Source: a virus (Duplodnaviria; Heunggongvirae; Uroviricota; Caudoviricetes). From it: DNA of 64,000 nucleotides. How positions within the stretch are numbered: position 1 is the first letter of the stretch; every line of letters begins with the position of its first letter. The DNA lies in IMG/VR virus record IMGVR_UViG_2718218139_000007; one strand, 5' to 3'. The position numbers were made by a program. Positions 9,001-12,000 of this stretch are shown piece after piece.

Positions 9001-12000
9001 GATCCTGCTGGTACCATGCTGTCGTGGTGGTTCGGCATTTACCCAGGGCGCGGAGGGGACATTCAGCGAGTCCACGGGGGCCAGTCAGGATTCGGCACGC
9101 TGGGGGATGGGCAAGCCGTTATATCAGGATCTGATTTCCCGCACAAAAGCGGCATTGCAGAAAAATCCCAAAAACGTTCTGCTGGCCGTCTGCTGGATGC
9201 AGGGTGAGTTTGACATGAGCGCCGCCACCCACGCACAGCAACCTGCGCTGTTTACAGCCATGCTGACACAGTTTCGTGCTGACCTCTCCGTGTTTAACGC
9301 GCAGTGCCATGGTGGCAGTGCTGCAGATGTGCCGTGGGTTTGTGGTGACACGACGTATTACTGGAAAAATACATACGCTACCCAGTACGACACCGTGTAC
9401 GGCGGGTATAAAAACAGGGAGAGTGAGGGCGTTTATTTTGTGCCCTTCATGACAGACGGTAACGGCGTCAATACCGCCACTAACGCGCCGGCAGAAGATC
9501 CGGATATTCCGGCATCAGGATATTACGGTGCGGCATCGAGAACGAATGGAAACCAGGTATCATCAAACCGCCCGACACATTTCAGTTCATGGGCGCGCAG
9601 GAGCATTATTCCGGATCGTCTGGCAACCGCTATTCTGAACGCAGCCGGGCGCACCTCAGCCTTCATCAGTGGTAAGGCACCGGAAATCAAACCCTCGCCC
9701 GGCGGCAACACGCCATCGGGTCCGTCTGCAGATACGTCCGTTCGCACAATCTCCCTGCTGCCGGCAGCCGGAGAGGCTGCTGCGCAGGGCTGGAGCATTA
9801 AAGATGGCGGAATTCAGTTGTCAGATGGTGTATTTAAGATCACCAAGCAGAGCAATAAAACCTGGTCCCTGACGCATCCGGTGGATGACGCAATTACCCT
9901 GCTGACACAGGGCGGCAGACTGACCTGTAAGTTCCGCCTGTCAGGCGCACTGACCAACAATCAGTTCGGGCTGGGGATTTATCTGTATACGGATGCTCCC
10001 GTTCCTGATGGTGTGGCGATGACGGGTACCGGTAATCCGTTCCTGATGTCGTACTTCACTCAGACCACTGACGGCAGAGTGAATCTGATGCATCACAGGA
10101 AAGCCGGAAACACGAAGCTGGGGGAGTTCGGCGATTACGGTAACGACTGGCAGACGCTGGAGCTGGTGTTCACCGCCGGCAGTGCCACGGTTACTCCGAA
10201 ACTGAATGGAGTGGCTGGCCCGGCATTCCAGGTTATAAAAGACAGTCTGACACTGGGACTGAATGCGCTGACGCTGACGGATGTTACAAAAAATGCAGCG
10301 TATGGCGTTGAGATAGAAAGTCTGATGCTGGAGATAAATGCACCGGCAGCATAATAAAAAAAGCCAGCGACTGATCTGAAAAAGAAGACGCTGGCTAAAA
10401 GGCCTTATATGTTTGTAGAGACTTATTTTTCACAGACAGCAATGATGCCTGTCAATATATTATCAATATGCGGATTGTTTCAGTTACAGATGCCTTATTA
10501 AGGAAAAAAACAGCCAGCACTGACTTTCGGTGGAGAGGTGCTGGCTCAAAAGGATAGATGTACTTCACATGTTGCTTCTATATGGTAGTACATTTTCTGA
10601 CAGACAGTGACGGATGTTGTCAAGATATTGTGTCATTTATAACCTGAATCAGGGGAGGCCGGAATGTTATCTGGCATTTTTAGCAGAGCCTGAATGCCAT
10701 GATCACGGCTCCCGGCGTTGGCCGTCAGTGGGTGACACTGGCGGCTTTTTTGTTTTTCTTTACTTTCATTTTCTGTCGGCGGTGACGGAGACATACATCA
10801 GATGGAAAAAATCACAACAGGTGTGTCATACACCACGTCAGCGGTGGGGACGGGATACTGGTTACTGCAGCTGCTGGACAAAGTCTCTCCGTCCCAGTGG
10901 GTGGCAATAGGTGTGCTGGGGAGTCTGCTGTTTGGCCTGCTGACGTATCTGACAAACCTTTATTTCAAGATTAAAGAAGATAAGCGCAAGGCTGCGAGAG
11001 GTGAATAATGCCTCCATCATTACGAAAAGCCGTTGCTGCTGCTATTGGTGGTGGGGCTGTTGCCATAGCGTCTGTGCTCATCACTGGTCCGAGTGGTGAC
11101 GATGGCCTGGAAGGTGTCAGCTACATACCATACGAAGATATCGTTGGCGTATGGACTGTATGTCACGGACACACCGGAAAAGACATCATGCCCGGTAAAA
11201 CGTATACCGAAGCAGAATGCAAAGCCCTCCTGAATAAAGACCTTGCCACGGTCGCCAGACAAATTAACCCGTACATCAACGTCGATATACCGGAAACAAC
11301 GCGCGGCGCTCTTTACTCGTTCGTTTACAACGTGGGCGCTGGCAATTTCAGAACATCGACGCTTCTTCGCAAAATAAACCAGGGCGATATCAAAGGCGCA
11401 TGTGATCAGCTACGGCGCTGGACATACGCTGGCGGTAAGCAATGGAAAGGGCTGATGACTCGCCGCGAGATTGAGCGTGAAGTCTGTTTGTGGGGGCAAC
11501 AATGAGCAGGGTAACCGTTATTATCTCCGCTCTGGTTATCTGCATTATCGCCTGCCTGTCATGGGCTGTTAATCATTACCGCGATAACGCCATTACCTAC
11601 AAAGCGCAACGCGATAAAAAAGCCAGTGAGCTGAAGCTGGCGAACGTGACAATTACTGATATGCAGGTACGCCAGCGTGATGTCGCTGCACTTGATGCCA
11701 GATACTCGAGGGAATTAGCTGATGCGAGAGCTGAAAATGAAACTCTGCGTGCTGATGTTGCCGCTGGTCGTAAGCGCCTGCGCATCAACGCCAACTGTCC
11801 AGGCTCCTTGCGTAAAGCCCCCATCACCTCCGGCGTGGGTAATGCAACCGGTCCCCGACTGGCAGAAGCCGCTGAACGGGATTATTTCATCCTCAGAGAA
11901 CGGCTGATGGCAATGCAGAAGCAACTGGAAGGAGCACAGGAATATATCCGTACCCAGTGTATACCGTGATGTTTTGTTATGAAGGTGTTACTGGTAACGT

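Follow-up and report, generated by a model that had tools for sequence, protein, structure and literature searches.

PasA is an Hfq-dependent sRNA encoded by prophage PP2 of EPEC O127:H6 E2348/69 (Pearl Mizrahi et al. 2021, PMC8550237). Its dependence on Hfq was demonstrated with Northern blots of wild type and delta-hfq strains, and its 41 partners in RIL-seq include LEE and bfp genes. The PasA seed lies in the 5' arm of the terminator and is complementary to the target motif CUG(A/U)UGCUGG (Fig. S5 of PMC8550237). Table S6 of that study places PasA on the minus strand, running from 743499 to either 743415 (85 nt, major form) or 743264 (236 nt, minor form), with ends derived from RNA-seq coverage and Northern band sizes rather than base-resolution mapping; the table also gives the orientation as "> < >" and lists EcOnc51 and EcOnc52 as EHEC homologues. 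Zhu et al. (2026) placed both pasA and pasC between a sialate esterase and a holin gene, noted that the mature PasA 5' end is possibly cleaved from a longer transcript, and stated that the pasA copies are not tandem duplicates.

EcOnc51 and EcOnc52 were originally reported as orphan Hfq-CRAC peaks flagged with a Rho-independent terminator (Tree et al. 2014, PMC4104026, Table S2), and a text search retrieved no paper on either beyond that original supplement. They differ from PasA in having had no Northern test and in having coordinates that are peak boundaries from an older record version. The anti-sRNAs AgvB and AsxR (RF02702, RF02703) belong to the same general class, namely short Hfq-binding RNAs of lambdoid prophage moron regions, and at 51-60 nt also combine a conserved 3' terminator module with variable 5' ends; they differ in position, being found as convergent pairs just 3' of PR'/stx, upstream of the esterase gene. 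OmrA/OmrB and PrrF1/PrrF2 are adjacent paralogous sRNA genes which have common 3' modules and diverged 5' parts. The Pas sRNAs have been explicitly contrasted with tandem pairs of the OmrA/OmrB kind (Zhu et al. 2026).

A diverged tandem repeat between the esterase and holin genes

The sequence analysed here, referred to as the window, is a 64,000-nucleotide stretch of a Caudoviricetes virus (IMG/VR record IMGVR_UViG_2718218139_000007). Positions 10355-10660 of the window consist of two diverged tandem units, designated unit A (on the esterase side) and unit B (on the holin side). The features of the locus are as follows.

8504-10354: SASA/DUF6645 esterase gene (nanS-p type), stop codon at 10352-10354
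10355-10420, minus strand: transcribed part of unit A, for which an RNA of ~65 nt is predicted should its own box act as a promoter
10356-10396, minus strand: unit A terminator, with 5' arm AGCCAGCG (10396-10389), 3' arm CGCUGGCU (10369-10362) and U7 (10362-10356)
10430-10461, minus strand: unit A box, AATATATTGACA-N10-CTGTCTGTGA, with a putative -35 TTGACA at 10455-10450
10462-10503, minus strand: spacer separating the PasA terminator from the box of unit A
10504-10546, minus strand: PasA terminator, with 5' arm AGCCAGCAC (10546-10538), 3' arm GUGCUGGCU (10520-10512) and G plus U7 (10511-10504)
10504-10588, minus strand: pasA, the unit B transcript (published 85-nt major sRNA), 5' end at 10588 and 3' end at 10504
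10598-10629, minus strand: unit B box, AATATCTTGACA-N10-CTGTCTGTCA, with a perfect putative -35 TTGACA at 10623-10618
10720-10756, plus strand: separate terminator facing the holin gene
10802-11008: P21-type holin gene
11008-11505: lysozyme gene

Gapped local alignment of unit A (10355-10504) with unit B (10505-10660) yielded z scores of 7.6 to 8.6 relative to shuffled sequences; neither the 2000 dinucleotide shuffles nor the 804 real windows of 156 nt drawn from the same 64-kb sequence contained one that scored as high. The tandem homology of the two units is therefore demonstrated. Tandem Repeats Finder reported nothing in the interval, because there are just two copies which, at ~60-70% alike with several indels, are too diverged. 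No credible ORF covering 10355-10660 was found, which agrees with the preliminary description of a region unexplained by ORFs. That description had proposed two adjacent repeats of ~130 bp at 10355-10640, between nanS-p and the holin gene, each with a hairpin and a conserved box. The repeats are real, with hairpins (gccagcg...cgctggc at 10363-10395 and gccagcac...gtgctggc at 10513-10545) and boxes where they had been placed, and the esterase and holin genes do flank the interval; the period, however, is 150 bp from terminator to terminator and 168 bp from box to box, and the likeness between the units continues to ~10654, a little beyond the end first given.

The arrangement of unit B followed by unit A was recovered in 70 of the 104 IMG/VR loci (viral contigs) anchored on unit B, and was the commonest arrangement found. 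At least 80% of a 321-bp query was present in 670 of 5426 complete E. coli genomes, and the pair also occurs in phage 434, H-19B and Stx1a phages, as well as in E. albertii, where the box-to-box spacing of 168 bp is identical. A scan of species-representative genomes gave matches in E. albertii only, such that the element is taxonomically narrow and distant homologues for deeper covariation analysis are lacking. Lack of conservation in related prophages had been named among the findings that would count against the initial interpretation; the pair is instead widely conserved.

The holin-side unit and PasA

The region 10340-10810 aligned ungapped with positions 743252-743722 of E2348/69 (NC_011601) at 99.4% identity, with the PasA coordinates 743499 to 743415 (minus strand) corresponding to 10588 to 10504 of the window. 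Unit B is identical to PasA at 84 of 85 nt, the one substitution being located near the 5' end (A at 10586, G in E2348/69), and it has in common with PasA the strand, the flanking esterase and holin genes, the terminator and the seed GCCAGCACCU, which is exact at 10545-10536 within the terminator 5' arm. It thereby passes the blastn threshold that Zhu et al. (2026) set for PasA and PasC, a match to >75% of the query. The PasA Northern probe GCCAGCACTGACTTTCGGTGGAGAG is an exact plus-strand match at 10513-10537, hence the RNA that was detected is minus-strand. The interval is situated between SASA (sialate O-acetyl) esterase and class II holin genes, as the PasA/PasC family requires, and the layout from esterase to holin is the same as that of PP2 in E2348/69. 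The probes for PasD and PasB had no match in the window, even with as many as 4 mismatches allowed.

When 6500-12500 was searched against Rfam 15 with cmscan (E <= 1), no family matched within 10355-10800, the match to STnc100 (RF02076) lying only at 8194-8366, so that family membership rests on sequence identity to published coordinates and not on a curated model. AgvB and AsxR were considered as identities for the units and rejected, given their other position, as convergent pairs 3' of PR', and the lack of an Rfam match in the interval.

The A7 and A6 runs that precede the hairpins on the plus strand are the U-tails of minus-strand Rho-independent terminators. Both minus-strand RNAs fold to a terminal hairpin followed by a U-run, comprising a 9-bp stem with G-U7 in unit B and an 8-bp stem with U7 in unit A, as expected of intrinsic terminators on that strand, and the fold of the unit A terminator had a z score of -3.9. 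Among 28 distinct variants of the terminator stem, 96% of cells were paired (21-49% in slid controls), with compensatory changes in three of the nine stem pairs (C-G to U-A, G-C to A-U). In the deposited record of phage 434, both hairpins are annotated as minus-strand terminators. The terminator scanner accepts loops of no more than 8 nt and therefore missed both hairpins, whose loops are 17 and 19 nt long and partly self-paired. Paired terminators or a small RNA had been among the roles first suggested for the repeats, and the kind of element was judged correctly, whilst the strand was not; the U7 tails and published PasA are all on the minus strand.

The conserved acagacag...tgtcaa.atatt element of the preliminary description was found as acagacag-N10-tgtcaa.atatt on the plus strand at 10430-10461 and 10598-10629, and the minus-strand reading of each tgtcaa box, AATATnTTGACA-N10-CTGTCTGT, is promoter-like. 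Scanning the 64-kb window for AATATNTTGACA-N10-CTGTCTGTNA gave exactly two sites, even when 2 mismatches were permitted, and none is expected (100 shuffles). The published PasA 5' end (10588) is 30 nt past the TTGACA of unit B. In a sigma-70 promoter, 16-18 bp separate the -35 and -10 hexamers and transcription starts ~7 nt further on; here the putative -10 hexamers at 17-18 bp are poor (TCAGAA/CAGAAA and TGAAAA/GAAAAA), and a better candidate, (G/A)AAAAT, sits at 19-20 bp. For unit B the weak -10 candidates are TCAGAA and GAAAAT. A simple promoter/terminator scanner, the type of prediction initially recommended, called neither box as a promoter, the -10 regions being weak, and left both hairpins uncalled; what it did find was the separate plus-strand terminator, at 10720-10746. 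Judging from the sequence, we infer that the conserved box is probably a promoter or regulatory site of each unit. Were the PasA 5' end to arise by cleavage, the box would not be its immediate promoter. Two other identities for CTGTCTGT were rejected by eye: a half LexA box (CTG-N10-CAG), for which the spacing does not fit, and a sigma-E -10 element (TCTGA), for which neither the spacing nor the -35 fits.

The interval is very probably the small-RNA locus pasA as carried by a lambdoid prophage of the Stx or 434 type, encoded on the minus strand in antisense orientation relative to the late operon, with the nanS-p-type esterase and holin genes on either side. Unit B is very probably PasA itself, an ~85-nt Hfq-dependent, trans-acting base-pairing sRNA with a Rho-independent terminator, the 5' arm of which bears the published seed.

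Possible roles of the esterase-side unit

Unit A is a diverged tandem copy of the same module, having a box, a shorter body (by ~20 nt relative to PasA) and a terminator. Its homology becomes visible only in an alignment that spans box, body and terminator at once; with PasA and PasC it aligns only over CCUUUUAGCCAGC, the stem and the U-tail. As this falls short of the >75%-of-query threshold of Zhu et al. (2026), unit A is by that measure a divergent paralogue and not a PasA or PasC variant. The counterpart of the PasA seed in unit A is GCCAGCGUCU, with only the core GCCAGC in common. The PasA publication did not treat the 150 bp downstream as a homologous second unit, and none of the sources consulted presents unit A as a tandem paralogue of PasA.

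Published data nonetheless include RNA from unit A. The end of the 236-nt PasA form, 743264, corresponds to 10353, where unit A has its terminator; the 236 nt are the sum of 85 nt and a further 151 nt, which makes the minor form longer by one repeat period. The unit A terminator is the 3' end of this read-through form. RIL-seq lists unit A separately, as pasA.E2348C_0688.IGR, on the minus strand with a U7 tract, and records 173 fragments and 5 partners, always as RNA2 in chimeras; the RNA2 3'-end fragments at 743267-743294 (minus) correspond to 10355-10382. In EHEC O157:H7 Sakai, the Hfq-CRAC peak EcOnc51, in prophage Sp12, falls on the region of the unit B terminator and EcOnc52, in prophage Sp4, coincides with unit A, placements that rest on both peaks hitting correct-strand hairpins and on the homology statement of PMC8550237, and for which the multi-copy sequence blocks the assignment of reads to one prophage.

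It is very probable that unit B is the published PasA and that unit A is a diverged tandem duplicate supplying a second terminator; under this explanation, expression, Hfq dependence and targets come from the literature on PasA. Unit A might in addition be transcribed alone as an sRNA of ~65 nt, a proposal that we advance tentatively. By extension, unit A (10355-10461, minus strand) is a conceivable, though not quite probable, third and so far unrecognised member of the PasA/PasC family, which would be an Hfq-binding ~65-nt sRNA expressed from its own box with the seed GCCAGCGUCU.

Alternatively, unit A may be a decaying duplicate kept as a fail-safe second terminator that prevents PasA read-through from entering the esterase gene antisense, with all of its RNA being the 3' part of the 236-nt isoform. 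This is a credible account, to which we give a little less than even weight. The published annotation merges unit A with PasA as the minor 236-nt form with the same 5' end, RIL-seq fragments are ~30-fold fewer for unit A than for PasA (173 vs 5099), and 2 nt separate the end of the unit A terminator from the stop codon of the esterase gene. In single-unit loci (the PasC type, and a b-type with a U-A variant of the stem) a second unit is dispensable for function. Unit A is moreover identical across several Sakai prophages, so the EcOnc52 reads are not assignable to Sp4 alone, and Sp4 itself lacks unit B. However, a bare terminator needs no upstream box, yet the box is exact in all 70 tandem loci (which were selected via unit B only). 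In the most diverged unit A copy there were no differences over the 41 positions from the box to the predicted +1, compared with 24 in 130 elsewhere, and the spacer at 10462-10503 varies more than the unit A box. Unit A also survives alone, with box and terminator intact, beside IS elements and on ~90-kb plasmids.

A role on the other strand, with the hairpins and boxes acting in the plus-strand late transcript as terminators, processing sites or regulator-binding sites for holin and lysis control, is very improbable. The late transcript does cross the interval on its way to the holin gene, the hairpins also fold as plus-strand RNA (-17 and -21 kcal/mol), and a plus-strand RNA segment antisense to the PasA 5' end (743494-743512) appeared once in RIL-seq, paired with PasB. 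On that strand, however, the hairpins are followed by AAAAGG and CAAAAGG, and without a U-run they cannot be intrinsic terminators of the late operon, the true plus-strand terminator being the separate element near the holin gene. The experimentally detected RNA is that of the minus strand, and PasC-type loci retain the unit even where the holin gene is replaced by ISEc13. A weaker point is that 8 minus-sense U-G pairs would be C-A mismatches on the plus strand, vs 2 opposite cases. The control of lysis genes originally envisaged for the repeats found no support. Finally, chance similarity, or a neutral and functionless remnant of duplicated intergenic DNA, can be ruled out despite the modest likeness of the units, their indels and the silence of Tandem Repeats Finder, given the z score of ~8 with a score unmatched in shuffled or real sequence, the covarying stems, the retention of the pair across phages, hundreds of genomes and E. 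albertii, and the published expression and Hfq binding.

PasC-type loci and the significance of the second unit

PasC, from prophage PP5 of E2348/69, belongs to the same family and occupies the same position, and its box and 5' part are nearly identical to those of unit B. Its terminator (GCCAGCG...CGCUGGC) is of the type seen in unit A and directly adjoins the stop codon of the esterase gene. PasC-type loci differ from the present locus in having one unit instead of two and in their loop sequence. Their match to the window extends to the 5' arm of the PasA terminator and picks up again at the terminator of unit A, with exactly one repeat period absent. These single-unit loci and the double-unit, PasA-type loci are probably related via the gain or loss of one repeat period.

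Much of the finding is already known, as one of the repeats is the published PasA. The sole new point, a modest one, is the recognition of the 150 bp that follow pasA as a diverged copy of its gene module. PasA is among the most connected accessory-genome sRNAs of EPEC in terms of its RIL-seq partners. Stx1 phages and phage 434 carry it, as do prophages of roughly one complete E. coli genome in eight. It has no annotation in RefSeq or Rfam, and consequently genome scans keep meeting it as an unexplained repeat.

The diverged copy explains both the 236-nt isoform and the EcOnc52 peak of EHEC, suggests an origin for PasC-type loci, and bears on the published conclusion that the Pas sRNAs were not expanded by tandem duplication. 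If unit A is indeed a third member of the family, it would have a different 5' region and a seed slightly unlike that of PasA, and PasC-type loci would be related via unequal crossing-over in the common UUUUAGCCAGC segment. The likeness to OmrA/OmrB and PrrF1/PrrF2 would hold provided that unit A is transcribed; PasA and unit A would in that case make up a tandem sRNA pair comparable to OmrA/OmrB, and the published exclusion of tandem duplication among Pas copies would be contradicted.

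Layout of the locus and the tandem repeat

No credible ORF was found over 10355-10800, in agreement with the preliminary description, which had held that ORFs leave this region unexplained. An Rfam 15 covariance search of the interval returned no match, and RefSeq records of the interval annotate no RNA gene. The features of the locus are as follows.

7180-7420, plus strand: three tRNA genes side by side, Met (CAU), Lys (UUU) and Arg (UCU), identified with ARAGORN
8194-8366, plus strand: full-length match to STnc100 (RF02076) a short way upstream of the esterase gene, 100.8 bits
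~8393-8419, plus strand: hairpin GGCUGCGCAUGGCGCGGCC followed by U8, ~25 nt beyond the STnc100 match
8504-10354: SASA/DUF6645 esterase of the nanS-p type, 616 aa
10356-10396, minus strand: terminator of unit A (esterase-proximal), with its box at 10430-10461
10504-10588, minus strand: transcript of unit B (holin-proximal), with its box at 10598-10629
10720-10756, plus strand: strong intrinsic terminator 45 nt before the start of the holin gene, with an 11-bp stem (GGCCGUCAGUG...CACUGGCGGCU) then U6GU5; -23 kcal/mol
10802-11008: P21-type class II holin, with lysozyme and spanin genes downstream

Within the tRNA trio, the Rfam tRNA model found the first (Met) and third (Arg) only; such clusters are typical of late regions in Stx-type prophages. 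The hairpin at ~8393-8419 occupies the position of PasD in related prophages; the PasD probe matches it over 11 nt, and the full probe is absent.

The repeat was confirmed with small corrections. Both GC hairpins with their preceding plus-strand A-runs, and both acagacag-N10-tgtcaa.atatt boxes, were found as first described, whilst the proposed unit length of ~130 bp gives way to a spacing of 150 bp between terminators and 168 bp between boxes. In its minus-strand form, AATATNTTGACA-N10-CTGTCTGTNA, the box has exactly two occurrences across the 64-kb window when two mismatches are tolerated, where chance expectation is none. Local alignment with gaps scored the two units at z = 7.6 to 8.6, above every one of 2000 dinucleotide shuffles and 804 real windows taken from this sequence; Tandem Repeats Finder did not detect the units, which are too diverged.

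On the minus strand each unit comprises, in order, the box (AATAT.TTGACA-N10-CTGTCTGT.A.AAAAT), a body of 24-43 nt, the GC hairpin and U7, as in a small transcription unit closed by a Rho-independent terminator. The suggestion of paired terminators thus holds for this strand but not for the plus strand, where AAAAGG or CAAAAGG comes after the hairpin in place of a U-run. In the curated phage 434 record (OL657226), which shows 99.4% identity across the interval, three terminators are annotated here: the two hairpins, on the minus strand, and another just ahead of the holin on the plus strand. This third terminator (10720-10756), which the PasC locus also keeps, would halt non-antiterminated transcription from the esterase or moron region ahead of the lysis genes. 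It sets an esterase 3'UTR of ~400 nt, antisense throughout to both units.

Identity of unit B with PasA

PasA and PasC are prophage sRNAs of EPEC E2348/69, and their genes have been placed with a sialate esterase on one side and the holin-lysozyme operon on the other (Zhu, Shabalina and Storz, bioRxiv 2026). In NC_011601, PasA is encoded on the minus strand, in the orientation "> < >" relative to its flanking genes, with a major form of 85 nt (743499 to 743415) and a minor form of 236 nt (743499 to 743264) (PMC8550237, Table S6). Window 10340-10810 aligned with this locus without gaps at 99.4% identity, and the PasA Northern probe GCCAGCACTGACTTTCGGTGGAGAG (PMC8550237) matched the plus strand exactly at 10513-10537, hence the RNA detected is minus-strand. 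The published 5' end falls at 10588 and the major 3' end at 10504, where the unit B U-tail stops. Together, the alignment, probe and mapped ends identify unit B as PasA, and the earlier guess of a small RNA was correct in kind. The minor 3' end maps to 10353, just beyond the unit A U-tail, and the two forms differ by 151 nt, one repeat period; the 236-nt species is PasA reading through to the unit A terminator, for which the unit B terminator would be leaky.

PasA is an Hfq-dependent sRNA expressed by the prophage in lysogens; LEE and bfp transcripts are among its 41 RIL-seq partners, and its seed, in the terminator 5' arm, is complementary to CUG(A/U)UGCUGG (PMC8550237). Among the target sites listed for EPEC is one at the 3' end of the neighbouring esterase gene, E2348C_0688 (PMC8550237); the motif, CUGAUGCUGGA, is present at window 10322-10332 (plus strand), in the last esterase codons, so PasA may pair in trans with this end of the esterase mRNA.

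The box contains a perfect -35, the -10 region is weak, and the published PasA 5' end is exactly 30 nt downstream of the -35. The perfect -35 and this distance point to the box as a putative promoter or regulatory site. Zhu et al. (bioRxiv 2026) suggested that the 5' end is made by cleavage, and their survey does not mention a promoter.

Unit A in published RNA data

The EPEC RIL-seq tables hold the minus-strand region from pasA to the esterase as a separate entry, pasA.E2348C_0688.IGR (PMC8550237), with a U tract of up to 7, 173 chimeric fragments and five partners, of which four are CDS or 5'UTR; the authors merged it with PasA. In the escD chimera, the unit A part (743267-743294) corresponds to window 10355-10382, the loop, 3' arm and tail of the unit A terminator. 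The EHEC homologues of PasA are EcOnc51 and EcOnc52 (Pearl Mizrahi et al. 2021, PMC8550237), orphan Hfq-CRAC peaks of Sakai, each with a predicted Rho-independent terminator (Tree et al. 2014, Table S2). With peak coordinates taken in the earlier Sakai record version, EcOnc51 (prophage Sp12) overlies the unit B terminator region and EcOnc52 (prophage Sp4) overlies unit A. Sp4 has IS629 in place of unit B; EcOnc52 reads are not assignable to Sp4 alone, as other Sakai prophages carry identical unit A sequence. Two readings of unit A are about equally probable: that it is only a back-up terminator shielding the esterase gene from antisense transcription, or that it doubles as an independent sRNA gene.

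Distribution, conservation and recombination

The exact box pattern was found in one of 185,579 species-representative genomes (E. albertii, two copies 168 bp apart) and in at least 120 contigs of IMG/VR. The 321-bp query was covered to 80% or more in 670 of 5426 complete E. coli genomes and in 26 phage-collection records, including phage 434, H-19B and Stx1a-converting phages. Gene order was invariably holin, B, A, esterase.

Arrangements in 104 contigs selected by the unit B box only
Unit B followed by unit A with an exact unit A box: 70 loci
Single unit, PasC-type terminator: 22 loci
Single unit whose b-type terminator (U-A stem variant) abuts the esterase stop: 6 loci
Interrupted, or with inserted DNA next: 6 loci

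The terminator stem was paired in 96% of cells over 28 distinct variants, versus 21-49% in slid controls, with compensatory changes in three of nine stem pairs. The most diverged unit A copy, on a ~90 kb plasmid (88.8% overall identity), was unchanged over the 41 nt that run from the box to the predicted start versus 24 differences in the other 130 aligned positions, which suggests selection on the box itself.

Among units aligned from E. coli genomes, phages and plasmids, the box was invariant in unit A, in unit B (PasA type and H-19B type) and in PasC. The transcribed 5' parts differed, the H-19B type departing from the PasA type in its 5' half, and the unit A body was ~20 nt shorter. In PasC-type loci (E2348/69 PP5, phage 2B8 and an O157:H16 strain), the match to the window runs through the PasA terminator 5' arm and restarts at the unit A terminator and esterase stop codon, such that exactly one repeat period is absent, with the junction inside the shared UUUUAGCCAGC. 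Judging from mosaics, such as a unit A body or a PasA 5' half joined to a PasC-type terminator, the units evidently recombine.

A second single-unit kind, beside the PasC type, was observed in IMG/VR loci L056, L060, L069, L105, L123 and L132, where a terminator with a compensatory C-G to U-A change (GCCAGUAC...GUACUGGC) abuts the esterase stop codon and the published PasA seed is altered. IS elements (IS629/IS1203, ISEc13, IS3 family, IS110 family and IS600) repeatedly break this intergenic region, at L006 (Sakai Sp4), L002 (E2348/69 PP5), L008, L014 and L015, and at IMG/VR loci including L042, L065, L084, L086, L089 and L115, leaving units A or B on their own, in some cases on plasmids of ~80-440 kb. 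PasA-3 has been described as without a terminator and may be an IS-truncated copy of this kind, comparable to L089, which is broken within its terminator.

PasA, EcOnc51/52 and the 236-nt isoform are already known. No publication was found that describes the 150 bp downstream of pasA as a diverged tandem duplicate of its module, and unit A falls outside the blastn criterion (>75% query coverage) of the 2026 survey (Zhu et al., bioRxiv 2026). The tandem-copy status of these 150 bp is a small, checkable new point.
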